A stretch of DNA of 60,823 nt, the filler included. It is 4 parts of 4 records of this genome, joined end to end, with 100 filler letters (N's around TTAATTAATTAA, not from the genome) between each part and the next. Parts side by side here need not be neighbours in the genome. Positions count along the whole stretch, not along the records: positions 50,171 to 60,823 come from DRR723986_12562; 3 more parts are not named here. One strand, written 5' to 3'. The position numbers were made by a program, and so were the translations under genes. Below are positions 25,716 through 60,477 of this stretch, piece by piece (position 1 is the first letter of the stretch; the number at the start of each line of letters is the position of its first letter). The notes under the pieces were generated by a model. That model made no database searches. It was given only the letters and a program-made list of their open reading frames with translations, and was not told where the DNA came from.

Positions 25716-27455
25716 CTAGAAGTAATAGATTGCTTGCACCCAGCCCCGGTAATCGTCATCGGAGCGGTCACTGTCTTCTCCCGTCTCCGGGTCGCGACCG
25801 TCGTTACTGCCGATTTGCCAGCCTATCGAGGCGCGCAGTACCAGACCTGTTGGCCAGGTCTGGCTGGCAGTCAGGCCCCAGGAAAGCAGGGTGATATTGT
25901 TTTTGAGGGTGCTATTGGAACCCTGCCAGCCATCCCAGGTTTCATCATGCAGTTGGGCCCAGCCGGCCGTGTAAAACAGTGAGGTTTGCAGGTCTCCGCC
26001 CCAGGGCAATTGCGGGAAATCGTAGCGCACATCTGCTTGCAGGCGCGCGCCGTGATCCCCACTTAGCTCCCCTGTTGGATAGCCGGGAATACTGAACGGG
26101 CCACCGAGATAAAACTTCTGGGATGCATCAAGGTTCCCGCTTGCCCATTGCCCTGCAAGGCCACCAAAGGCCGACCAGGCGCCCTTGAGGTGCTGGAGTC
26201 GCGACACATCGAAGTTGAAACGGGCAAAGCTGCCATCGGAGCCTACATTCGCCCGATCGAAGGCTTTGAAAGCATCTCCACCCCGGATATCCACCGAGCC
26301 ACCGGTGAGGCCGGCATAGTAATAACTTCTGCCATTGGCCCAGCGGTCGTCATCGTGATCGCCGCTAGCACTCGCAGTCAGGGTATGTAGCCGACGATCA
26401 GCCTCCTGGATGCCACTGTCATCATTATCCTCCAGGGACAGATAGGCGTACTCAAGGCGACCTGTCAGGTTGCTGTGGCGTGAGCGGATATATGGCTGGC
26501 TTGCAAAGAGACGCAGTGAGGAGGCATCGCCCTCGAACCCGAAGCCGCTAAATTCCTCGCCCAGTTCATAGTCGAGATAGTCCACACTGGCGCCGATGCG
26601 CAGGCCATTACCTGCAACCGGTACGCTGTAGTCGACAAAGACGTAATTTGAGTCACTGCCGCTGGTCACTGCCCGCAGGGTAAGTTGGTCGCCGCTCCCG
26701 GACGGGCTGTTGATGTAAACCGTAGCGCCCAGGCGGCTTTCTCCGGTGTAATAGCTGCCGAAATTATCAATATCCACATTGCCGGTGACCAGCGGTGTGT
26801 CCTCGGTACGCATCAGGAATCGCGCTTCACCGGGCTCGGCGCCGGGATAGATCAGGGAGTGTGAGGTGATACCCGGAAGATCGTCTACCAGCAGGATAGT
26901 GCGCTCAAACTCCTCTCGAGTCATCAATGCACCTGTCGCCAGGTTCTCCTCCAATATTGCGGCGATCACCTCGTCATCGACCCGCTGCCCTTCGTTTTGT
27001 AAGGCTACCCCGCCTTCTTCCAGGCGCCCCTCATAAACGTGCAGTGTAACCAGGCCATCTGCTATTGCCTGAGGTGGCAGATATACCTGCGCGGCAAACA
27101 GCCCGCGCTCACGATAAGCACTCCGCAAACTGTCAATCGCCTGCTGTAAGTTCCCGGCATCTAATTCCTGGTCAGAGAACGGCGCCAACAGGCTTGAGAC
27201 CTCCTCATCGGAAAGCGAGGTGTTACCGTAAACCACGAAATGACTGACGGCGATTGTTTCTTCTCCCCGGATTACGGGCTCTTCAGGGGCTTCAACTTCC
27301 ACCTTACTATCAGTGGACCTGGGTCTTTCGATAAGACGATTATCCCTGACATCTTGATAGAGTGATCCACTGTTGGGGAAGGGAAATGCCCAGGCGCTTG
27401 TCGTTACGCTGAGGCTCAAAGCTATCAATAGTGTCTGGCGCTTCTTTATCGGCAT
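25716..27455 (-). CDS. ShlB/FhaC/HecB (TpsB, Omp85) family outer-membrane transporter
   Basis: Signal peptide, POTRA-like region (YRERGL..AQVYLPPQ, LVDDLPG), DNFGSYYTG, beta-barrel ending in YYF. Confidence 0.9.
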   Translation of the reverse strand: MPIKKRQTLLIALSLSVTTSAWAFPFPNSGSLYQDVRDNRLIERPRSTDSKVEVEAPEEPVIRGEETIAVSHFVVYGNTSLSDEEVSSLLAPFSDQELDAGNLQQAIDSLRSAYRERGLFAAQVYLPPQAIADGLVTLHVYEGRLEEGGVALQNEGQRVDDEVIAAILEENLATGALMTREEFERTILLVDDLPGITSHSLIYPGAEPGEARFLMRTEDTPLVTGNVDIDNFGSYYTGESRLGATVYINSPSGSGDQLTLRAVTSGSDSNYVFVDYSVPVAGNGLRIGASVDYLDYELGEEFSGFGFEGDASSLRLFASQPYIRSRHSNLTGRLEYAYLSLEDNDDSGIQEADRRLHTLTASASGDHDDDRWANGRSYYYAGLTGGSVDIRGGDAFKAFDRANVGSDGSFARFNFDVSRLQHLKGAWSAFGGLAGQWASGNLDASQKFYLGGPFSIPGYPTGELSGDHGARLQADVRYDFPQLPWGGDLQTSLFYTAGWAQLHDETWDGWQGSNSTLKNNITLLSWGLTASQTWPTGLVLRASIGWQIGSNDGRDPETGEDSDRSDDDYRGWVQAIYYF

Positions 27456-27667
27456 CAAAGGAAACCTGTGCTTTTACGAGATCAAGGTCTCGCTGAGAAT
27501 CTTTGGATCGGCATCAGGGGGCTAGACTGCGTTCTTGTTCGTGCTCTCTGATCGATGACGCGCAAAGATAGAGACATTGACCCGGTATGTGCCGGTTGGA
27601 CCATGAACCTGGTTGTATTGGCGGTCATCCAGCCTTCCCCGGTTAACCCCGTAAATCTTTAAACATT

Positions 27668-50170: not shown

Positions 50171-50465
50171 TTTCGTCTTCATCGGACTCATCTTCATCGG
50201 ATTCATCTCCGTCGCTGTCACTGTCTTCGTCGGCGTCACTCTCTGCGTCTGAATTACCGTCGCCATCTTCGTCGGCGTCTTCACTTTCGTTGTTCGCGTC
50301 GGCATCTGAGTCCTCAAGGTCTGCTGATTCCAACTGGGCCTTGTTCTGGTTTGAAGTTTCAGGCAAGCTTTCTAGCGGGCCGGCGCCGTCTTCACAAGAA
50401 CATAGTCCAAAGATTGCCAGGATTGAGAGTACTGTGAGCAGGTGTCTGATTGTGTGAATAGTCAT
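50171..50465 (-). CDS. Asp/Glu-rich putative lipoprotein, 3' truncated
   Basis: ATG 50465 with GGAAAGGAAG upstream; signal peptide ending GLCSC; DEDES-type acidic repeats. Confidence 0.72.
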
Positions 50466-50552
50466 TCTTCGGCTTCCTTTCCAGCTGTTGATAAGATGGC
50501 CGCCTGATTCCCATGTAGTAAACTGCAGTAGGCGGCGTTTCTGTCGTTGGCG

Positions 50553-50585
50553 GCATGAATACAGTTCAATTTTGATTGTTACAGC
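50553..50585 (-). promoter_or_regulatory. Putative ECF promoter, copy 1 (towards acidic lipoprotein)
   Basis: Minus strand reads GCTGTAACA-ATCAAAATTGAA-CTGTATTCATGC. Confidence 0.75.
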
Positions 50586-50619
50586 GTGCCCAGGCTGGAA
50601 AATTGTAGCGATATTTGTA

Positions 50620-50652
50620 GCTGTAACACTTTCCACGAATCTGTATTCATGC
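50620..50652 (+). promoter_or_regulatory. Putative ECF promoter, copy 2 (towards sigma gene, autoregulatory)
   Basis: GCTGTAACA-CTTTCCACGAAT-CTGTATTCATGC; both boxes identical to copy 1. Confidence 0.75.
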
Positions 50653-50678
50653 GCTGTTACGCAAAAAAACGGTGAGCA

Positions 50679-51224
50679 ATGAAGGTTCAAACTACGCACA
50701 GCAGCGACGATGAGGTCCTCCTGGACCGCATCAAGAACAAAGACGCAGCGGCATTTAATGTCCTCTACGATCGCTACGCCGAGCGCCTTTTTGGCTACTG
50801 CCTGGCAGCGACGAAAGACCGCGAGATGGCGGAAGACATCTATCAGACAACTCTGATGACTGTTTTCCAAAAAGCTGAACAATTCAAAGGTGGCGACTTC
50901 GCAGCATGGATGTTCACAATTGCGCGTAACAACGTGCGCCTCTCACAGCGCAATAAGCTGCAGACAAGTGACATCGACGCAGCCTTTGATTTGGCTGGAG
51001 ATGGCGAAAGCCCGGATAAAGACATCTTCTTTTCCGGCGCCCTGGAAAACGCAATTGCGGATCTTCCGCCCGAGTTCCGCGAAGTCTTTGTCCTCAAATA
51101 TGTGGATGGCTTTGCGTACCACGAGATAGCCGAGAAATGTGACATTTCAATGTCGCTGGTTAAAGTGCGCATCTTCCGCGCTAAAAAACTTTTACGTAAT
51201 TCCCTACAACCGTATCTAAGCTGA
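50679..51224 (+). CDS. ECF-type RNA polymerase sigma factor
   Basis: Region 2 (AEDIYQ, WMFTIARN) and region 4 (LPPEFREVFVLKY..YHEIAE..VKVRIFRAKK). Confidence 0.94.
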   Translation: MKVQTTHSSDDEVLLDRIKNKDAAAFNVLYDRYAERLFGYCLAATKDREMAEDIYQTTLMTVFQKAEQFKGGDFAAWMFTIARNNVRLSQRNKLQTSDIDAAFDLAGDGESPDKDIFFSGALENAIADLPPEFREVFVLKYVDGFAYHEIAEKCDISMSLVKVRIFRAKKLLRNSLQPYLS

Positions 51225-51230
51225 AACAGT

Positions 51231-52244
51231 ATGCGATCCGATGAACTGATAGCTAAAAAACTCGATGGCGAGCTGAGCCCGGAAGAAGCTGCGGAACTGC
51301 AATCACTGCTTTCCGCCGATCCGGAATTAGCGAAGGAACTGCGCGAACTCGAAGCGCTGGAAGAATCACTTGATGTGCAAAACCACGTAAATTCGGCCGG
51401 TGCACGTGCTTTCCGCGCAGACCATAAGTCTGAGCTGCAAGCCAGCCTGATGCGCAGTGGAAATCGCAGATCCGGTGGTGTATATTGGTTGGGTGGAATG
51501 CTCACCATCGTCGCCGTTGTTCTGGTGACCTGGTTGACGCTACCGCAAGACCCTTCCGAACAACAACTAAAACAAACAGCTGCAAACACAAGCAGCGCGG
51601 ATCAAGGCACTCAGCCGGCAAACCCCAATTCCCAAAGCTCTCAGCCTGAAGCCGCTCAGCCTCAAAACTCCCAGCCGGCGGATCCGCAGAACGAGGCTGT
51701 GAACAACAAGCCTACACCCAATCAGACACATGCCGCCGCGCCCCAGCAACAGAGTCGTCCTGCTCAGCAGCCCGCCAATTCGGACGATGCCGAGACGCCG
51801 AATCCCACAGATCAACTGACATCAGCGTCAGAAGCACGTGCAGTAACACAGGCGGAAACCCCTCCTGCACAACGTGGACAGGGACAGGCAAGCCTCAGCA
51901 GCGGAAAAATCAATCAGGCACTTGGTGCTGAAATTGAACGCCTGAACCGCACAATTGCAAGTGAAACCAAAAATATCCTCAACGCCGTCAGCCTGCACAA
52001 ACGCGCCAAAATTGAGCGTGCCATGCAAGACTTTACAACCGCCGAAGCCACGCTGCTCGAAGCGCTCGAACTTCTTAAACTCGACAAGTCAACAGCCGTG
52101 GAAAGTGACATTCTAAGCACGCTCGCGCGCACAGCTCACGATCTTGGCAAACTGGACGATGCGCGCACGTACAAACAACGCGCCCTCGAAATTTGCTCAC
52201 CGAACCGACTAGAGCGCATTCAACAAGAGCTAAGCGGTATCTAA
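51231..52244 (+). CDS. Putative transmembrane anti-sigma factor with low-complexity linker and TPR-like C-terminus
   Basis: 6 nt after the sigma gene; N-terminal LDGELSPEE anti-sigma-like helices, one TM, Q/P/N/S-rich linker, helical repeats. Confidence 0.75.
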   Translation: MRSDELIAKKLDGELSPEEAAELQSLLSADPELAKELRELEALEESLDVQNHVNSAGARAFRADHKSELQASLMRSGNRRSGGVYWLGGMLTIVAVVLVTWLTLPQDPSEQQLKQTAANTSSADQGTQPANPNSQSSQPEAAQPQNSQPADPQNEAVNNKPTPNQTHAAAPQQQSRPAQQPANSDDAETPNPTDQLTSASEARAVTQAETPPAQRGQGQASLSSGKINQALGAEIERLNRTIASETKNILNAVSLHKRAKIERAMQDFTTAEATLLEALELLKLDKSTAVESDILSTLARTAHDLGKLDDARTYKQRALEICSPNRLERIQQELSGI

Positions 52245-52293
52245 ACTTGTAGACTGATGAACATCTGTTGCCGGCGGCTATGCCATAGCTTGA

Positions 52294-54417
52294 CTATTTT
52301 CTGGAAACGATGTTCCCCGGTTTAAAGATCAGCCACACCAAATTGGCGTTTTCCTGCGACCGGCCAGTAACTGCCTGCCCATTATTCTCACTCGCCCTGG
52401 CGGCTAACACCGTCGGAGCGGCGTGAATCTTGACGAATCGATTCCGTTTTTCGATTAAATCGACTAGCTCTGTAAGTATTTTGCTTGCCCCACTGTTCAT
52501 TGCTGGTTCGATTGAATACATGAGGCCAAATACGCCCTCATCTTGCATAATAGAGCGATAGGGCTCCAGTAATTCTACTGCTGAGCCACTGTCCAGATTT
52601 ATGCCAACGCGATACGCGCTTCCAACGACTGTATCAGACTTGCTCACTCGACTAAAGCTGAGCTCGACAGGGTCACTCATTTTGCGGGCACCGGATCCGT
52701 CAACAACCCAAAGCTTGCCCTGAAGTTGCCCGCCACCGCTTAGAATAGCTGGTATGATCACCGATGGAATGCGCCATTCGATTTCTTCCGGTAGATCAAA
52801 ACCAGTGCGCTCATAGAATTGCAATTTCTTACCTGTGGCTTGAAACAGCCCCAAACGCCAGTAGTACATCCCTGCCTCTGCGAGCACATAGGGAATGAAA
52901 CGCACAGTCACCGGTCCCATCATTCTGGCACTATTGCGCTGAAGCCGCAAAGGTGCAAGAATTGCGGATTGCGAGCTGGAGAGCCTGGCGCGAACACCCG
53001 GCCTGGATCCGTCAGTTCCGGCCGAAACACTGCGATGCAGAATGCGCTGCGGCTCAATTTCCCATTGCTTTTGCATCCATGCTTGCAATTCGTTAAACAG
53101 GTCCAGTTCATCAGTCTCAATGGTCAATTCAGCGCGGTGACGTGACTGCAGGCGGTGGCCAATTGAATCGAGTACATCCAGATCTTGATCGGGAGTAGCC
53201 AACTGCCAAATTTCCGCGGTCTTGCCTATAAGCCGCGCTGCAGGCATAGCCGAACTGTACCAGTTCGTAGAAATCGGCACGTAAATCTGCTCGTCAATCA
53301 GATCCATGTCGAGTGTGATATTCGCGCCTGTCTGTCCGCTGCCATCTTCAAGCTCTGCTTCCAGGGCTACAACCAGCAAAGATTCAGGCTGCGGAATGCG
53401 GCGCAGGTAGCTTTCGCGAATCGTCGAACGCAAAATGATGCGCGTAGAGCTCAGCGTATCGCGTTCAAGTGTTTGTGTCTGGTTGCGCAGAACCACACTC
53501 TCTGCGGCCAGATCGTCAACCAGAGTCGTCACCGTATCACGCACAAATACCGTATCGCGCAGCAGGATCACTTCTTCTGACTCTGCGGGCCGCCAGGCCA
53601 GACGCGCTCCCAGCTGAATGGCGCGCGCCGACCAATCAACATCACTATCAAAACTGTAGCTGCGCGGCTGGATGCGGATTTCGGGGCTGAGAGATAACTG
53701 CTGCGCCGAATTCAGGTAGAACTCATATCCCAAGGCCAGGTCCAGGCCAAAAGAGCCGCCGTCCAGAACAATCTGCTCATCATCCTCGGTGATTTGACGG
53801 ATTGTTCCGCCTTCGGGAAACTCACTGCCGGCCGGCGATAGAATCTCTTCCGTTTGATCGTATTCATCATTGATGGGCAGGAGCAGTTGCGGCCCCGTAC
53901 GCAGGTACCAGTTCCTGAATTGCAGCGTCAGGTGCGGCTGGAAGCTCAGCGCGCGCATGTTAAGCGAAACCAGATGTTCGTTGCTGCCTGACGTCGGCAC
54001 ACCTTGCACGATCAGATCGGTTGTCTCGATGCTGCTGAACTCGGTGCTGAAGTCGCTATAGCCGATTTCGACGCCCGCACTTAAAGCCAGCTCCGCCGAA
54101 AAACGATACTCAAGTGGACTGAACGACAGTGCAAACGCAGCCGAAGGACTGACTGCAGACTCAAATGCGGGTGCATCAATAGGCAGGTTAACAGGATTTA
54201 CGCCAAAGGGGTTGCCGGAATGTGCATTCAGGCCGAGACCAGCAAAAAGCTCAAACCGCCAGCGCAGCTGAAGCGGATCTGTAGTAGAAAGTAGCGGCTC
54301 CGACGATTGCTGAGAAACGGCACAAACAGGCAGCGACAAAAACCACAGGCTAAGGCCAAGAGCCAGCGGAATACGTGCAAAAATCGAATGGAGCAGAGTG
54401 GAGTTGGGGTCGCGCAT
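52294..54417 (-). CDS. Probable outer-membrane beta-barrel protein with C-terminal extension
   Basis: Signal peptide and alternating amphipathic strands (FELFAGLGLN, LDLALGYEF, IQLGARLAW); function not recognised. Confidence 0.6.
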   Translation of the reverse strand: MRDPNSTLLHSIFARIPLALGLSLWFLSLPVCAVSQQSSEPLLSTTDPLQLRWRFELFAGLGLNAHSGNPFGVNPVNLPIDAPAFESAVSPSAAFALSFSPLEYRFSAELALSAGVEIGYSDFSTEFSSIETTDLIVQGVPTSGSNEHLVSLNMRALSFQPHLTLQFRNWYLRTGPQLLLPINDEYDQTEEILSPAGSEFPEGGTIRQITEDDEQIVLDGGSFGLDLALGYEFYLNSAQQLSLSPEIRIQPRSYSFDSDVDWSARAIQLGARLAWRPAESEEVILLRDTVFVRDTVTTLVDDLAAESVVLRNQTQTLERDTLSSTRIILRSTIRESYLRRIPQPESLLVVALEAELEDGSGQTGANITLDMDLIDEQIYVPISTNWYSSAMPAARLIGKTAEIWQLATPDQDLDVLDSIGHRLQSRHRAELTIETDELDLFNELQAWMQKQWEIEPQRILHRSVSAGTDGSRPGVRARLSSSQSAILAPLRLQRNSARMMGPVTVRFIPYVLAEAGMYYWRLGLFQATGKKLQFYERTGFDLPEEIEWRIPSVIIPAILSGGGQLQGKLWVVDGSGARKMSDPVELSFSRVSKSDTVVGSAYRVGINLDSGSAVELLEPYRSIMQDEGVFGLMYSIEPAMNSGASKILTELVDLIEKRNRFVKIHAAPTVLAARASENNGQAVTGRSQENANLVWLIFKPGNIVSRK

Positions 54418-54462
54418 CACTACAAATGTACTGATTTGCGCGCGGAAATTGCAGGGAAGCTG

Positions 54463-54972
54463 TTAACGCTGTCGGAACGCTTTCATCTCAGCATGCAGCG
54501 CCTTAAAATCGAGCACACCATTGTGAATTTTAAGATGTTCCAGGATCAGGTGGGCATTCTCCAGACGCTTTTGTGGTTTTTTGACCTTGCCCGCCACGTA
54601 AATTAACTGGCGCATTTTGCCTGGCGTGAGTGCGTGGAACAGCCTATCACCTTCCGGATCCTGTTCCAATAGAGACGCAAACTCGTCCGGCATGGGCAGT
54701 CCGTACTTCGATTCGTCCGGCGCAAGTGTGACCGCCACTGGATCACCTTCCACGATTCCGAGTGCAGTGCGGTGCTGCTTGTTGACGTTAATAAAGTAGG
54801 TGCCGTCACCCTTGGGCATCAGTGCGCAGTGAAACGTGGTGGACTCATTCAGGGTACAAATTACGCGCGTTCCGCTGCCGGCGATAAAATGTTGGGCAAC
54901 GTCGTCCGGGATTGGAATGTAGTAATACCACAGTTCCGAATAGAATTTGCGCAGCTCACTCAGGAATTCCAT
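54463..54972 (-). CDS. DUF1905 + YdeI/OmdA domain protein
   Basis: RVICTLN, HCALMP, YGLPMPDEF and FHALTPGKMR motifs. Confidence 0.82.
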   Translation of the reverse strand: MEFLSELRKFYSELWYYYIPIPDDVAQHFIAGSGTRVICTLNESTTFHCALMPKGDGTYFINVNKQHRTALGIVEGDPVAVTLAPDESKYGLPMPDEFASLLEQDPEGDRLFHALTPGKMRQLIYVAGKVKKPQKRLENAHLILEHLKIHNGVLDFKALHAEMKAFRQR

Positions 54973-55101
54973 TGGCGTCTTGTTTGAGGTTTCTGCAAAG
55001 CCCTTCTTGTTAGGCAATGTACCCAAAGCCGGAAACAGGCGATTCTACGCACGGTGACGTGCGCGTCTTTTCATGAACTCATGAGGGCACAATTTACACA
55101 A

Positions 55102-57204
55102 TCAACGCACAATCAGGCTGCGTACCATAGAATGTGTTCCGGCGCTGATGCGGCAGTAGTACATGCCGCTGCGTAGTGTTGAAATATTGACATCGATGTC
55201 AAATGTGCCCGCCGCTGTGGGTAAAAGTTCGTCCAGCGCCAGGACAACACGCCCCAGATTGTCAAGGATACGCAGCTGGGCGGGAGCGGCGTCAAAATAG
55301 CCCTCAATGCGCACCTGGTCCGTAGCCGGATTAGGTGAATGGAACAGGGCCAGCTCACCTTTATTACTGTTGATATAGCGATTGCCGCCAAAACGCCAGA
55401 TATTCGTGATCTGCAGCTCAGATGATTGGCAAACGTTGCTGACGTCCAAGGCCTGGCCCGCGGCAAACCACTGCAATGTGAGGCAGTCAATTTCGAGGCT
55501 GCTGCGCTCGGCGCTGCCCAGGCCACTGATGCAGGGCAAGGTCAGAATCGCCTGGCCTGCCTGCGGGCTGACCGGCACATTCTCAAGCGTCACAAACTGG
55601 CGGCCAGAGCTGATGGGGCCTCGCGTGGCGGGATCCACGGGCGTCAGAAGGTCCGCGTCAAAATGCAGTGTGGCTGTCAAGCTCAGGTTGTTGAGCGCAG
55701 CGAGGTCATCACTCAGCTGATCGACAATAATACTCAGGTTAACTTCTTCACCGGCATCGGTTTCGAGCGGCAGCACGCGCAAATCGGCGCTGTAGACTTC
55801 AGCGAGCGCCGCCAGGTCAAACAGGCACACAAAAGCATCGGAATTGCCGGCATAATTGGGCTGAAAAGCCGCAGCGCTGGTCGGAAGATCAAGCGAAAAG
55901 GTCATTCCAGCCAGCCGCAGTTGCTGATCCGTCACAAAACTGAGTCCGGCGGCCTCATCTGCAGCGATGCCACCAAAAAATCCCTGTACAAATGCTTCGC
56001 CGCCGGCCGGATCAAAGACTGTCAATAAAACGTCAATGTCGGCCGCAAATTCAAACGGCCAATCGCTGTCTGGACGCACATCACCTGAGTTGCTACTGGC
56101 TGCAACTGCTATCTGGTCAAGCGAGTTTACGGCGAGAACGGCTGATTCATCGACGCCAATTCCGCCAATCAACCATGTCGTCAACGCCTGACCGTTTACA
56201 TCCAAAAGTGCTACAAAAAGATCGGTTTGCGCAGAGCGCATGCGTCCAAAATCGCCGTTGCGCGCAGGCAAGTCGTCGGACGCAGTACCGCCGGCAATTG
56301 CGATACGGCCGTCACTGAGAAGCGCAATTGCGTCCGGCTCTTCGTCGGCGGCGCCACCCCAGGCGACCGAGCTTAGCAGTGTGCCGTCCAGGTCAAAGGT
56401 CAAAACGAAGGCGTCGCTGTCCCCCCGCAGCGATCCGGCAGTTAAGGGGAAATCTGCCGATTCGGTGCTGCCGGCAAGGAGGAAGCGGCCGCCATTCGAA
56501 ATTAAAGCGCGCGCTTCGTCATCCGAAGCGCCTCCGATAAATGTAGAGGCGATTAGTGAGCCGCCGTCAGCTGCAAGTATGCAGAGATAAGCATCTCCGT
56601 CGCCATTATAGGTTGGGTCAAAAGCATTTTCGATTGGAAAGTCGTCACCCGATTCAACTTCGCCACAGAGTGCAATCCTACCGTCGGCGGCGACGGCCAC
56701 AGCATAAAGTTCTTCTTCGCTCTCGCCACCAATTCTGGTGGACCACAGCATTGTGTTTCCGTCAAGAGTCAGCTTAGCGGCAAAGATGTCGCTGTTGGAA
56801 TCATCGTCATCATCGCCAAAGTGCAGACCGGGAAAGTCTTCGGAATCAGTCTCGCCGGCCAGGATAATAGCTCCGTCGGCGGCCCAGGCCAGTGCTTTAA
56901 TTTGATCATCACCTTCAAAATCAAAATAGCTGGCCCAGATAATTGAGCTAAGGTCGGCACTGATGCGCGCAACAAAGCCGGCCTCATCATCGGTCGCCAC
57001 GGTTTGAAACGCTCCGAGGGTTGCGGGGAAGTCGGCGGAACTGGTCACTCCGGCAACAATCACCGAGCCGTCCGGCGCGGTCAACATCGCCGTAATTTCA
57101 TCAGCTGCGGCGCCGCCCAGGAAGCTGGAATTCACAAGTTCTGTAGCGCGCAGTGGCAGAGTCAGGCAGAGAAGTGCTGATATTAGGAGTACAAATGGGC
57201 GCAT
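55102..57204 (-). CDS. SBBP-repeat beta-propeller protein with T9SS type A C-terminal sorting domain
   Basis: Repeated GG...D.A..(A/G)G.T.S.DFP units; C-terminal PNPATD..ILDNLGRVV..LRSGMYYCRI. Confidence 0.88.
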   Translation of the reverse strand: MRPFVLLISALLCLTLPLRATELVNSSFLGGAAADEITAMLTAPDGSVIVAGVTSSADFPATLGAFQTVATDDEAGFVARISADLSSIIWASYFDFEGDDQIKALAWAADGAIILAGETDSEDFPGLHFGDDDDDSNSDIFAAKLTLDGNTMLWSTRIGGESEEELYAVAVAADGRIALCGEVESGDDFPIENAFDPTYNGDGDAYLCILAADGGSLIASTFIGGASDDEARALISNGGRFLLAGSTESADFPLTAGSLRGDSDAFVLTFDLDGTLLSSVAWGGAADEEPDAIALLSDGRIAIAGGTASDDLPARNGDFGRMRSAQTDLFVALLDVNGQALTTWLIGGIGVDESAVLAVNSLDQIAVAASSNSGDVRPDSDWPFEFAADIDVLLTVFDPAGGEAFVQGFFGGIAADEAAGLSFVTDQQLRLAGMTFSLDLPTSAAAFQPNYAGNSDAFVCLFDLAALAEVYSADLRVLPLETDAGEEVNLSIIVDQLSDDLAALNNLSLTATLHFDADLLTPVDPATRGPISSGRQFVTLENVPVSPQAGQAILTLPCISGLGSAERSSLEIDCLTLQWFAAGQALDVSNVCQSSELQITNIWRFGGNRYINSNKGELALFHSPNPATDQVRIEGYFDAAPAQLRILDNLGRVVLALDELLPTAAGTFDIDVNISTLRSGMYYCRISAGTHSMVRSLIVR

Positions 57205-57268
57205 GCTGTGGCCGGTGCTTGGTTCGTTAAGGGAGCGCATCCTGCAGTAAGATGCATTGTTTGACTGC

Positions 57269-57300
57269 GCACGAATACACTTGTAGTGTGATTGTTACAC
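57269..57300 (-). promoter_or_regulatory. Putative ECF promoter, copy 3 (towards T9SS beta-propeller gene)
   Basis: Minus strand reads GTGTAACA-ATCACACTACAA-GTGTATTCGTGC. Confidence 0.72.
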
Positions 57301-57433
57301 AGAATTATTATTACGCTCGGGCAGTATCAAATTTGTCGTAATTTTCGGCTCGGGCATGCAAGGTTGCTCCCCCAAACCAATCATGTACACTTGCCCGAAC
57401 TCTTCCCGGCTCGCCGGCGCAGGAACCACCTCA

Positions 57434-58051
57434 ATGCACAAGTCAACCAATCTCAATACAGGCACAGACTTAAGTACAAGATCCAAAACCGCCAGTTCTT
57501 CAACGCGGCAGCAGACTGAAAAACAGGAGCCTGAACAGGAATCGCGGCGCAGTTTTTTGCGCACTTCCGGCGCGGCTTTGAGCGCGGGCATCTGCGGCCT
57601 GAGTCTTGGCGCTCTGCTGCAGAGCTGCGCAGATGAGCAGGATGGCGACTCAGGCATCACGGAGCCAGATCCCGACCCAGATTCCGACCCAGATTCCGAC
57701 CCTGGCCAGACAGCGGGCCTCAAGATAGATGTGCGTGCCGAGGCGGCCCTGCAAGCGCCGGGCGGTTTTATCCAGCGCCGTTTTGCCGACTTCAACGACG
57801 GACATCCACTGATTGTGATTCGCGCTGAAGCGGACACTTTTCTGGTTTGTAGCGCGCTGTGCACCCATGAGCGCTGCATTGTGGAACCGCCACGCCCCAG
57901 CGACGGAAAAATCGTGTGCCCCTGCCACGACTCCGAGTTTAGTTCGCTGGACGGCTCCTGGATCGCAGGTCCGGCGCAACGTGGCTTGTGGACCTTTAAC
58001 TCGCGTTATGATGCTGTGAGCGGTGAGTTGAGCGTCGGCAGACGCAGCTGA
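57434..58051 (+). CDS. Rieske [2Fe-2S] protein with Tat/lipoprotein signal (paralog 1)
   Basis: SRRSFL, LLQSC, CTHERC and CPCHDSEF motifs; start uncertain (57356/57383/57434). Confidence 0.9.
   Translation: MHKSTNLNTGTDLSTRSKTASSSTRQQTEKQEPEQESRRSFLRTSGAALSAGICGLSLGALLQSCADEQDGDSGITEPDPDPDSDPDSDPGQTAGLKIDVRAEAALQAPGGFIQRRFADFNDGHPLIVIRAEADTFLVCSALCTHERCIVEPPRPSDGKIVCPCHDSEFSSLDGSWIAGPAQRGLWTFNSRYDAVSGELSVGRRS
57665..57700 (+). repeat. 12-bp coding tandem repeat x3 (PDPD/PDSD linker)
   Basis: CCAGATCCCGAC CCAGATTCCGAC CCAGATTCCGAC. Confidence 0.85.
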
Positions 58052-58134
58052 AGCGCGCCGGACTGCCCGCAATCAACAGCTTAATCACGGCCAGGTTCAG
58101 GCAGCCGCCAGACAGGTTTTTACGCTATATCCCC

Positions 58135-58160
58135 AAAAAAAACGGCCCGACTGCGGGCCG
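58135..58160 (-). terminator. Intrinsic terminator on the minus strand
   Basis: Minus strand reads CGGCCCG-CAGT-CGGGCCG-TTTTTTTT; no T-tract in the plus orientation. Confidence 0.78.
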
Positions 58161-58183
58161 ACCACACATGCCCACAATCACGC
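58135..58183 (-). ncRNA. Candidate ECF-dependent small RNA (~45-50 nt)
   Basis: Lies between promoter copy 4 and a same-strand intrinsic terminator; no credible ORF; 5' end inferred. Confidence 0.5.
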
Positions 58184-58187
58184 ATGC

Positions 58188-58215
58188 GAATGCAGTTTTG
58201 TGCGCATTGTTACAG
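58188..58215 (-). promoter_or_regulatory. Putative ECF promoter, copy 4 (towards candidate sRNA)
   Basis: Minus strand reads CTGTAACA-ATGCGCACAAAA-CTGCATTC. Confidence 0.7.
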
Positions 58216-58238
58216 TGCGTTTGGTCTCAGTTTTTGGC

Positions 58239-58265
58239 CGTAACAAAGTCTCCAAATCTGCATTC
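58239..58265 (+). promoter_or_regulatory. Putative ECF promoter, copy 5 (towards Rieske paralog 2)
   Basis: CGTAACA-AAGTCTCCAAAT-CTGCATTC. Confidence 0.7.
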
Positions 58266-58330
58266 CGGCATTGAGACAACAAGCAGCGCCTGCGGCGGTG
58301 TGTTTAATGCAGAATTTGGGGGATAACACC

Positions 58331-58849
58331 ATGTCAGTACAGAAAAAACAAAAAACAGACAAGCAGGAACAAGCCTCACGCCGCGACTTTCTGCGTAGGT
58401 CCGGCACACTTATTGGCGTCGGCTTGTGCAGTGGTACACTTGCAGCAATTATACAGAGTTGTGACGATGAGGCCGGTCCGGCCTATCCGGCGCCGGGCAC
58501 AATTTCGGGCAACTTTGTGCTTGATGTTAATAACGAGCCGGACCTGCAAACACCCGGCGGAAATATTCGCCGACGCTTTGGCAGTTTTTATGATGGACAG
58601 CCCGTCATAATCGTGCGGCGCGATGCCACAAGTTTTTTGGCACTCAGCGCTATCTGTACTCACGAGGTTTGTGTGGTGGATCCGCCACGCCCCGGCGATG
58701 GGATTATCGTATGTCCCTGCCACGAAGCCGAGTTCAGCTCAGCCGATGGTTCGGTCCTGCGCGGCCCGGCCAAACAGGGACTCTACATTTTTGATACGAA
58801 TTTTGACGCCGAGAGCGGCATGCTGACCGTCGGCCGTGTTGAGGGATAG
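58331..58849 (+). CDS. Rieske [2Fe-2S] protein with Tat/lipoprotein signal (paralog 2)
   Basis: SRRDFL, IIQSC, CTHEVC and CPCHEAEF motifs; ATG 58331 with GGGGGA upstream. Confidence 0.9.
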   Translation: MSVQKKQKTDKQEQASRRDFLRRSGTLIGVGLCSGTLAAIIQSCDDEAGPAYPAPGTISGNFVLDVNNEPDLQTPGGNIRRRFGSFYDGQPVIIVRRDATSFLALSAICTHEVCVVDPPRPGDGIIVCPCHEAEFSSADGSVLRGPAKQGLYIFDTNFDAESGMLTVGRVEG

Positions 58850-59082: not shown

Positions 59083-60477
59083 TCAGGCGGCGGCTGAGAG
59101 CGGGAAGGCCAGGCGGAACATGGTGCGGCCCGGTTCAGAACGCACGGCGATATCGGCTTTGTGGTTGCGAACGATGCGCTGCACAATATCCAGCCCCAGG
59201 CCGGTGCCTTCGCCAACGCCCTTGGTCGTATAAAAAGGCTCAAAAATTTTGGAGATGTCCGCCTCGGCGATACCCTTGCCGTTGTCGATCACACAGATCA
59301 CAACATGTTCAGCTTCCTTGCGCCCCTGAATTTCGAGTACACCCGCCGTGTCCATCGCGTCGATAGCATTGTCAATCAGATTTGTCCAGACCTGGTTTAG
59401 TTCGCCGGGCATAGCCAGAATGGTTGGTAAATCTTCCGGCAAATCGAGATTTGTGGAGATATTTTTGGCGCGCAGTTTATGCCCCAGCATCGTCAGCGTG
59501 TTCTGAATGCCATCCTGAATCTTCGTGACACTTTTGTCTGCCGCCTGATCCATGTGTGTATAGGACTTAACCGATTTGACCAGCGTAGCGATTCGTTCGG
59601 AGGCGTCCTGGATCTCAACCACCAGTTTTTCGGAGGTCTGGACATCTTCCAGCCAGGCGATGACGGGCCCCAGGTATTGGGGACTAACCTGCTCCAGGAC
59701 TTCTTCCAGCTCAGCAACTGTCCAATCAAACTCTGTGAGCGTTTCGGCGATCTGGTCCGCATTGTCCACGTCGTGATCTTCAAGCCAGTCGAGCAACTCA
59801 TCTTCGCGTTCGCTGCGTTGCATCATCGTCATGTCGTTGTTTACGCCGCTGTCGATTTTGCGGAACATGATGTTGTTAACGTGATCTACCTGCTCATCTG
59901 TCAGGCGGATGGCAATCACGGCTTTAAACTTATCGGGAATTGCGCGCCAGTGTTCACGCAGGCTGTGTGCAGCACGCACAACGGCTGAAGCCGGATTGTT
60001 AATTTCATGTGCCAGCCCGGCGGAAAGTTTTCCAAGGGCCATCAGCTTTTCATTGAGCAATTCTGTTTTGGTGACGTCACGTACGCGCGTCAGCATGCGG
60101 TGCACCAGACATTCTACCAGCTCGTGCTGCGAGCGAATCATTTCCGGAAAATGCTCTATATTCAGTCGTAGAATCCGCGTGGGCTCCAGGACTATTCCGC
60201 GTCCGATAGATTCCTGCATGCGTGAGTATGGCAGTTTACCGCCAACACCTTTCTCAATTGTCCCGGCCGATTTAAGTTGTCCGCCATAGCGCAGCGAAAA
60301 CGAAATTTGCCCTTCAAGAACCACCCACATGTCGTCGGCCTCATCACCAACGTCAAACGCTACCGTACCCACTTCCAGCTCCTGGACTTCTGACTTTTCG
60401 ACCAGCCAGCGCAGCTGTTCTTCGGGCACTTCGGTAAAGGGTTCGATTGTACGTAGTTCATCAACGATCGATTGCAT
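59083..60477 (-). CDS. Cytoplasmic sensor histidine kinase with N-terminal cNMP-binding-like domain
   Basis: cNMP-like N-terminus; AHEINNP, NLIDNA, DNGKG, FEPFYTTK and GTGLGL motifs. Confidence 0.92.
   Translation of the reverse strand: MQSIVDELRTIEPFTEVPEEQLRWLVEKSEVQELEVGTVAFDVGDEADDMWVVLEGQISFSLRYGGQLKSAGTIEKGVGGKLPYSRMQESIGRGIVLEPTRILRLNIEHFPEMIRSQHELVECLVHRMLTRVRDVTKTELLNEKLMALGKLSAGLAHEINNPASAVVRAAHSLREHWRAIPDKFKAVIAIRLTDEQVDHVNNIMFRKIDSGVNNDMTMMQRSEREDELLDWLEDHDVDNADQIAETLTEFDWTVAELEEVLEQVSPQYLGPVIAWLEDVQTSEKLVVEIQDASERIATLVKSVKSYTHMDQAADKSVTKIQDGIQNTLTMLGHKLRAKNISTNLDLPEDLPTILAMPGELNQVWTNLIDNAIDAMDTAGVLEIQGRKEAEHVVICVIDNGKGIAEADISKIFEPFYTTKGVGEGTGLGLDIVQRIVRNHKADIAVRSEPGRTMFRLAFPLSAAA

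Follow-up and report, generated by a model that had tools for sequence, protein, structure and literature searches.

A probable autoregulated local ECF sigma factor regulon with a TGTAAC-N16-YATTC promoter in an uncultured Kapabacteria-type lineage

Introduction

Autoregulated local regulons governed by sigma factors of the extracytoplasmic function (ECF) type form a described class (Todor et al. 2020, PMC7776599). Within the supplement of PMC7826278, -35 boxes of the TGTAAC type are given for ECF16, ECF40, ECF120, ECF127, ECF218, ECF231, ECF235 and ECF264, and TATTC was not found in the text available from that source. In Flavobacterium psychrophilum, motif SM6 has been inferred to cover type IX secretion system (T9SS) genes, an ECF/anti-sigma pair and the RNA Rfp11 (PMC9723704, Table 2C). 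The present study concerns a stretch of DNA of 60,823 nucleotides (nt), referred to as the window, and within it the bipartite motif YGTAACA-N12-STGYATTC, five copies of which share a contig with the gene of an ECF sigma factor (50679-51224). The motif is very probably the -35/-10 promoter of this sigma factor, with TGTAAC(A) as the -35, 16 nt from AAC to YATTC and TG ending the spacer. The basis is in silico: it comprises the sites and their register, the extent to which they are conserved and how well they fit the DNA-reading residues of the sigma factor. The system is a new example of autoregulated local ECF regulons and is ordinary in kind.

Results

The window is made up of four contigs joined by runs of N, with G+C contents of 48, 57, 40 and 54%; each N gap holds the spacer TTAATTAATTAA. 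An exact pattern search of the whole window returned exactly five matches to the motif, every one in the fourth contig (50171-60823, 53.8% G+C) and none in the other three. Among 1000 dinucleotide shuffles of this contig the mean count was 0.001 and the maximum 1, with no shuffle reaching five, a test that is favorable to the motif because the pattern was derived from the same five copies; position and conservation are the independent checks. All five copies fall within the part of the contig that is free of gene calls, which makes up 14.4% of it (0.144^5 = 6e-5). A start codon follows 30-91 nt downstream of four of them, and they are laid out back to back in two pairs, at distances of 39 and 25 nt, plus one single site. 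An unbiased scan for gapped pairs of 5-mers did not surface the motif (top count 4, the same as in shuffles), because the Y divides its count. These results confirm the claim of an earlier note on this DNA that five intergenic copies are present in one 10.6-kb contig and that copies 1 and 2 have identical boxes, GCTGTAACA and CTGTATTCATGC; the coordinates given there carried a few flanking bases. Copy 1 (50557..50583, minus strand; TGTAAC-N14-TG-TATTC) precedes the ATG of an acidic lipoprotein gene by 91 nt, and the putatively autoregulatory copy 2 (50622..50648, plus strand) stands 30 nt upstream of the ATG of the sigma/anti-sigma operon. Copy 3 (57273..57299, minus strand) faces a T9SS beta-propeller gene, and copy 4 (58188..58214, minus strand) forms a back-to-back pair, 25 nt apart, with copy 5 (58239..58265, plus strand), a CGTAAC variant facing the second of two Rieske paralogs.

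The sigma factor (50679..51224, plus strand; 181 amino acids) is an ECF group 4 member, with sigma2 and sigma4 only, a short linker and no sigma3. Pfam matches were obtained for Sigma70_r2 (residues 29-86) and Sigma70_r4_2 (121-172) and none for region 3. The protein scored 82 bits against TIGR02937 (cut-off 42.9), and all 24 subfamily or equivalog NCBIfam models among the 25 best listed scored below their cut-offs. Its best solved-structure relative by sequence was E. coli RpoE (E-value 1e-15), to which Leu88, Lys162 and Val163 of the window sigma align at Asn84, Arg171 and Ser172, respectively; RpoE numbering is used below. The placement of Leu88 comes from an ungapped alignment through a helix predicted by a structure model to be unbroken over residues 74-105, while pairwise HMMER alignments, by contrast, place gaps around this residue.

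Relatives were sampled as the best 79 loci (L001-L079) of at least 553 relatives among 600 candidates. TGTAAC was present within 200 nt upstream of 67 of the 80 clade sigma genes, compared to 209 of 5000 background windows, and the 13 loci without TGTAAC in this range were excluded from the residue and -10 counts. T was found at -11 (third base, 16 nt from AAC) in 63 of 67 clade promoters, and among the tested spacers of 13 to 19 only 16 had a positive code score across the clade. Judged by these sequences the motif should be written TGTAAC-N16-YATTC, its spacer ending in TG; the distance from AAC is 16 and not 14 because the -10 begins at the Y of TGYATTC rather than at TG. Under the 7+5 convention of PMC7776599 the distance is 15, inside the 15-18 range searched there. 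A spacer-14 register with TGY as the -10 was rejected, since it breaks the T at -11 in two of the five sites and scores negatively across the clade. The caution in the earlier note that the AAC-to-GT spacer is short was a misreading, as 16 is the spacing of the whole clade by the same 63/67 count.

The residue at the RpoE-Asn84 position was reflected in the bases at -13/-12: Lys was accompanied by an initial G in 50 of 53 promoters, Asn by TG in 8 of 10 and Leu by TA in 4 of 4. For other sigma factors, measured preferences (PMC7776599, Dataset S3) are GA/GG/GC for Lys, CG/TG for Asn and, for Leu, CA as first of 16 (0.27), and the same dataset links Lys171 to C at -31 (0.98) and Val172 to T at -34 (0.39, the top base). 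Within the entries of this dataset considered here, the residues of the window sigma fit the published code, with Lys171 for -31C, Val172 for -34T and Leu84 for CA/TA. The Leu set and the Asn-TG set are each one clade in a quick tree that served solely to show this, and the correspondence is therefore an agreement with the measured code, not a co-evolution statistic. Positions -13 to -11 read YAT and lack the CGT of the original, later relaxed, ECF criterion for the -10 (PMC8103513), a departure that the residue-base code permits for Leu at the Asn84 position. In 20 of 21 sites, one or other of the two expected start positions held a pyrimidine-purine step (background 0.515; orthologous sites are non-independent), and TG stood just before the -10 in 15 of 19 sites at four sigma loci versus 10 of 63 paralog promoters.

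Two further features of the clade promoters were observed. An A directly after TGTAAC was seen in seven promoters, each of them under a sigma factor with Val at the RpoE-Val170 position (window, L001-L003, L011, L012 and L059), and in none of the 60 under sigma factors with Ala; this pair is absent from Table S1 of PMC7776599 and rests on about two independent lineages. A well-supported subclade of nine paralogs (L018, L020, L021, L023, L027-L029, L034 and L036) has no TGTAAC within 200 nt upstream, and three of the nine have it 268-296 nt upstream, which may reflect long leaders or loss of autoregulation.

Among the best 79 loci, 29 were named Candidatus Kapaibacterium or Kapaibacteriota and 18 Ignavibacteria or Melioribacter, and several others appear mislabelled; from these relatives we infer that the window belongs to an uncultured Kapabacteria-type lineage. 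Sigma orthologs were found at three loci, L001 and L002 (90% identical; genomes G002 and G001, respectively) and L003 (70%; G003, Candidatus Kapaibacterium), and a search of 254 genomes of the order at E 1e-55 recovered them in just three. Another ortholog, P0002, is 86% identical, and a JGI metagenome scan for closer orthologs returned one distant fragment among the matches listed. At all three ortholog loci, sites precede the sigma gene, the divergent lipoprotein gene, the Rieske gene and the T9SS operon, with G003 using TATCA and TA-CATTC variants, and the three genomes have few other sites. Equivalents of copy 1 are present in L001 and L002, where 38 nt separate them from the divergent copy 2 equivalent (39 nt in the window), and in L003.

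Genome-wide site placement was tested in the genomes of these relatives. The scan, which the earlier note had proposed, was run with the strict pattern and gave matches concentrated in the ortholog genomes at conserved neighbors: six in G001, five in G002 and one in G003, with none for the reversed control. The 148 other sampled genomes of the order yielded 15 single matches versus 10 in the control, 14 of the 15 inside long stop-free frames. The strict counts and the conserved neighbors therefore point to a small, mostly local regulon. The proposal that the sigma factor reads the motif, autoregulates and co-regulates exported proteins including a Rieske lipoprotein is supported by conservation in all three ortholog genomes, by the fit to the code and by the start-site signature.

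Additional sites in G001 and G002 were located before genes for a PepSY lipoprotein and a thioredoxin-ApbE fusion. The latter has an unusually long site-to-start leader of 240 nt (L081/L082) that is retained in both genomes; Rfam gave no match on L082, and seven loci from relatives that were searched likewise gave none. Cytochrome c domains are present in the divergent lipoprotein of G003. Identical copies of the promoter and PepSY-lipoprotein gene at G001:C16:129417 and G001:C41:15247 represent either a recent duplication or an assembly duplicate. Relaxed-pattern matches away from the locus were dropped as members, as 6 of 12 checked lie inside long frames and one, common to G001 and G002, overlaps the start of a gene. 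In relatives the locus is bordered by DoxX, YceI, haem-binding and receiver-oxidoreductase genes, and sites of their own were not seen in the scans. Of the 20 Rieske genes in the order that matched best, a site stands at promoter distance before just the two at ortholog loci; among the 18 homologs in other settings, 17 lack YGTAAC within 350 nt and the remaining one has a far CGTAAC. Ancestral control of Rieske genes in the order was thus not supported by homologs outside the ortholog loci.

Several observations weigh against assigning the motif to this sigma factor. TA, present at three of the five window sites, ranks only fifth of 16 for Leu (0.06) in the PMC7776599 table, which was measured with a different sigma factor, and the five sites score 1.57 at spacer 14 for an Asn84 sigma compared to 0.85 at spacer 16 for Leu84. 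The Leu84 clade is one branch of four sequences and represents one evolutionary event rather than four. Copy 3 is the only one of the 21 sites without a pyrimidine-purine start step, and G003, the most distant ortholog genome, with its single strict match, depends on the TATCA/TA variants.

A rival reading is that the sites are promoters read, alone or additionally, by a paralogous ECF sigma of the same clade, possibly with TGY in register at spacer 14. The sigma4 helix shows almost no variation (SLAKVRVFRAK in 67 of 80 clade sigmas), TGTAAC is shared by the clade, and G001 and G002 each have at least three such paralogs, yet the paralogs have promoters of their own in the same genomes (3, 3 and 7 sites), a separate set without overlap and with distinct -10 boxes at spacer 16. 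TG at spacer 14 would suit Asn84 in the code table, but this spacing, which the clade does not use, places C at -11 in two of the five sites, and the motif cluster was found only where a Leu84 sigma is present. We consider a paralogous reader improbable. It is more improbable still that the motif is the operator of another regulator, such as a response regulator paired with the adjacent cNMP-domain histidine kinase; this kinase and a receiver-domain oxidoreductase near the locus in relatives speak for it. Against it, the site shows no palindrome or direct repeat and is strictly oriented toward gene starts. Its left box corresponds to TGTAACC, the general ECF -35 consensus (PMC7776599, Table S1), and its right box varies with one sigma residue across the paralogs.

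The gene following the sigma gene (51231..52244, plus strand; 337 amino acids) starts 6 nt after the sigma stop codon and, on position and architecture, probably encodes a single-pass anti-sigma factor. Its product is predicted to comprise a zinc-free N-terminal domain, one transmembrane helix near residue 86, a low-complexity linker and a C-terminal TPR region (TPR_12). Matches to NCBIfam anti-sigma profiles were weak and below cut-off (E 3e-5 and 2e-4). A homologous gene follows the sigma gene in 75 loci, and none of these 75 proteins contains HxxxC in its first 60 amino acids.

The lipoprotein gene facing copy 1 (50171..50465, minus strand) is truncated by the contig end, leaving 98 codons visible. 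Its product consists of 36% Asp and Glu and has a signal peptide and a lipobox-like Cys in its sequence. It gave no Pfam match, and its N-terminus is 48% identical over 25 amino acids to that of the L001 gene at the same place. In the window protein the signal peptide nearly abuts the Asp/Glu-rich tract, whereas in the L001 and L002 homologs the two are separated by a folded domain of about 130 residues. Copy 3 faces the gene of a T9SS-sorted, SBBP-like beta-propeller protein (55102..57204, minus strand; Por_Secre_tail) with a further in-frame ATG at 57240; Atlas leads (0.87) point to SBBP plus Por_Secre_tail clusters, and SBBP is present in the L003 homolog. Co-transcription would add a DUF1905/OmdA protein gene (54463..54969, minus strand), found at the same place in L001, as the middle gene and a gene for a probable outer-membrane beta-barrel protein (52294..54420, minus strand; 708 amino acids) as the last gene of this operon. 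The top Atlas matches of the 708-residue protein (0.91) are 'OMP beta-barrel', and its L003 homolog has OmpA, while the window protein is without a Pfam match.

Both Rieske lipoproteins, paralog 1 (57434..58051, plus strand; start codon uncertain) and paralog 2 (58331..58849, plus strand), have a Pfam Rieske match, here of the [2Fe-2S] type for paralog 2, together with a twin-arginine translocation (TAT) motif and a lipobox, the TAT signal of paralog 2 being narrowly below cut-off (16.5 vs 16.7 bits). They share 49% identity. Copy 5 faces paralog 2, and no intact motif copy faces paralog 1. At 57323-57349 (plus strand), 24 nt back to back with copy 3, lies a decayed -35 look-alike, AGTATCA, with no -10 box after it; it sits where a duplication would predict the promoter of paralog 1. 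G001 and G002 (L002:18677-19564; L088) have a single Rieske lipoprotein with two tandem Rieske domains; the two single-domain proteins of the window resemble domain 1 and the G003 protein resembles domain 2. The histidine kinase gene (59083-60477, minus strand) is convergent with Rieske paralog 2 in the window, as in G001 and G002, and has no motif upstream. In relatives, the gene for the receiver-domain pyridine-nucleotide oxidoreductase is on the opposite side of the locus from the kinase gene. The remainder of the window (1-50070) comprises three unrelated contigs encoding ordinary metabolic proteins, namely amidohydrolases, PhoD, aldehyde dehydrogenases, pyruvate kinase, phosphofructokinase and a penicillin amidase family member, as well as a ShlB/FhaC two-partner secretion transporter (25716-27458).

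Downstream of copy 4, a 7-base-pair G:C hairpin (58160-58143) is followed by a T run, the terminator that the earlier note had described. With a start at 58179, as the register predicts, copy 4 would yield a 45-nt transcript (58135..58179, minus strand). In G001 and G002, the site paired back to back with the Rieske promoter, at a distance of 25 nt, appears to drive the gene of a 561-residue exported protein with ASH/Ig repeats that heads the T9SS operon. A second copy in G002 (L088:1475, minus strand; L108, G002:C16 9403-12290) faces a 47-codon remnant of the ASH/Ig gene, and orphan promoters therefore do arise at this spot. Unrelated frames lie between the two promoter copies in G002. The window lacks the ASH/Ig gene and has two Rieske genes, an arrangement that would fit duplication of the promoter pair plus Rieske gene. 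The likeliest reading of copy 4, to which we give slightly less than an even chance, is an orphan promoter left after gene loss and duplication of the Rieske cassette; its retained consensus speaks against a pure relic, and the failure of the RNA to be conserved speaks against an old small RNA (sRNA).

The earlier note had counted an sRNA among the regulon members, which is not sustained by the relatives, where the homologous promoter serves a protein gene and no copy of the RNA was found. A role of the 45-nt transcript as a functional trans-acting sRNA that forms the regulon's repressing arm is conceivable but unlikely. Copy 4 is a perfect promoter whose predicted +1 falls on a T-G step, with a hairpin and U8 run about 20 nt later on the correct strand; it keeps the consensus despite the divergence of the Rieske paralogs to 49%, and the 52-nt stretch behind it has a fold z-score of -3.2, partly from the terminator itself; RpoE-dependent sRNAs (PMC8103513) and Rfp11 (PMC9723704) would be precedents. 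On the other hand, searches of G001-G003 gave no significant match to the RNA (best E 0.21), Rfam on the contig gave none for it and only one chance match inside a gene (mir-5345, E 0.72), and the homologous site in relatives faces a protein gene or the 47-codon remnant. The predicted folds also argue against an sRNA: the preferred 5' antiterminator stem (-18.0 kcal/mol) pairs the would-be seed and destroys the terminator (-13.7 kcal/mol), whose pairing probability is 0.002 for a transcript starting at 58179 and 0.67 for one starting one base later.

The same fold could instead make the leader an attenuator, in which the antiterminator forms first and antisense transcription proceeds across Rieske paralog 1 into the copy-3 operon while copy 5 activates paralog 2, a sigma-triggered swap of the Rieske paralogs. 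The antiterminator stem begins with the predicted +1 base, contains G-U pairs and can form on the transcribed strand only, and Rieske paralog 1 is without its own motif copy. Random leaders, however, break the terminator in 141-195 of 3000 trials (about 5-6%), the fold was noticed post hoc, there is no conservation to examine and no switch regulator was identified, which makes an attenuator quite unlikely. Slightly more doubtful is the fullest version of this reading, an excludon-like swap between the two periplasmic Rieske paralogs by a gated antisense transcript that crosses paralog 1 and enters the T9SS operon, with the sigma factor perhaps also reading TG as an extended -10 without region 3. 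Two candidates at copy 4 were rejected: a 19-codon frame beginning 2 nt after the site as a leader peptide, its ATG lying upstream of the predicted +1, and pairing through a 12-base-pair repeat (58064/58169) between the Rieske-1 3' region and the 5' arm of the RNA, which is at chance level with 21 short repeat families in 1.2 kb.

Discussion

Assuming that the motif is the promoter of the neighboring sigma factor, the resting sigma would be held at the membrane by the adjacent single-pass anti-sigma. An envelope signal, sensed by or through the periplasmic TPR domain, would release it, most likely by regulated proteolysis, which is known for other single-pass anti-sigma factors. The freed sigma would amplify its own production through copy 2 in a positive feedback and would induce the lipoprotein, the T9SS surface-protein operon and the TAT-exported Rieske lipoprotein. 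Paralogous sigma factors share the -35, and the -10 box would insulate the window sigma, whose Leu at the RpoE-Asn84 position would read YA. The signal might be the upkeep of extracytoplasmic redox or electron-transfer proteins, a tentative suggestion with somewhat less than an even chance, made because the targets include Rieske, cytochrome c and PepSY lipoproteins and a thioredoxin-ApbE fusion.

For an uncultured lineage of Kapabacteria type, the analysis supplies a candidate promoter consensus and regulon of an ECF sigma factor, and it is chiefly useful as a natural test of the residue-base code of ECF factors. Within one clade the sigma4 helix and the -35 are constant, and one sigma2 residue (Lys, Asn or Leu) tracks the -10 (G-, TG or YA), which would explain the insulation of several paralogs in one genome; the clade thus offers a ready set of putatively orthogonal sigma-promoter pairs. 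Of greater weight, if true, would be the reading of TG at -15/-14 by a sigma factor without region 3 and a role of copy 4 as an attenuated antisense switch between the Rieske paralogs.

The combination of targets had seemed unfamiliar in the earlier note, yet ECF control of envelope proteins together with sRNAs is described for RpoE (PMC8103513) and inferred for SM6 (PMC9723704). No description of the present system was found in literature searches on Kapabacteria sigma factors, on ECF factors together with Rieske and TGTAAC and on an ECF TG motif; subscription papers and supplements could hold one.

As far as the sources cited describe them, the closest systems share part of the features of this locus. 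With the class of PMC7776599 it has in common the bipartite promoter before the operon of the sigma factor itself, the few promoters near the sigma gene, a -35 equal to the collection-wide consensus TGTAAC(C) (Table S1), the patchy distribution and adherence to the code. It differs in its -10, YATTC rather than the consensus CGTC, in Leu at the Asn84 position, and in the TG before the -10 and the A after TGTAAC, -15/-14 and Val170 not being among the positions of Table S1; with five or more promoters it also exceeds the limit of three set there for a small regulon. E. coli RpoE (ECF02; PMC8103513) and F. psychrophilum SM6 (PMC9723704) likewise pair an ECF factor with envelope proteins, along with small RNAs, but have large conserved regulons and mapped RNAs, whereas the window regulon is local and its RNA is predicted only and not conserved; the window gave no RseA/RseB match.

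By promoter, ECF120 (PG0985 of Porphyromonas gingivalis; PMC7826278) is similar in its -35, TGTAACAAA, which is close to TGTAACA(AT), in its inferred autoregulation and in the membrane protein encoded at +1. Its -10 is TCGTCAT in contrast to TGYATTC in the window, and the studied member encodes a DUF4252 outer-membrane protein at +2, while the window operon has two genes and no co-oriented +2 gene; DUF4252 had no match among the nine contig proteins scanned. ECF235 (the YlaC group; PMC7826278) combines a conserved TGTAAC -35 with subgroup-specific -10 boxes, a resemblance of pattern and not of sequence, and has a single-pass +1 anti-sigma. The ECF235 anti-sigmas contain sigma_reg_N/C or a zinc finger, in contrast to the window protein, which has neither and ends in TPR.

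A membrane anti-sigma with an extracytoplasmic TPR is also described for Myxococcus xanthus DdvS/DdvA (PMC6061681) and for ECF35, and DdvS has four clustered GTAA-n16-CGT promoters around its own gene. DdvA has an outer domain of about 900 residues with a CHAT protease, compared to about 230 residues and no CHAT match for the window protein, and DdvS/DdvA controls a CRISPR-Cas locus (PMC6061681), while the window targets are exported and redox proteins and there are no cas genes among those of the contig; ECF35 is listed as 100% Proteobacteria. By their published descriptions, then, ECF120 and ECF235 are closest by promoter and DdvS/DdvA and ECF35 by the TPR anti-sigma, and each is set apart from the window system by at least one tested feature.

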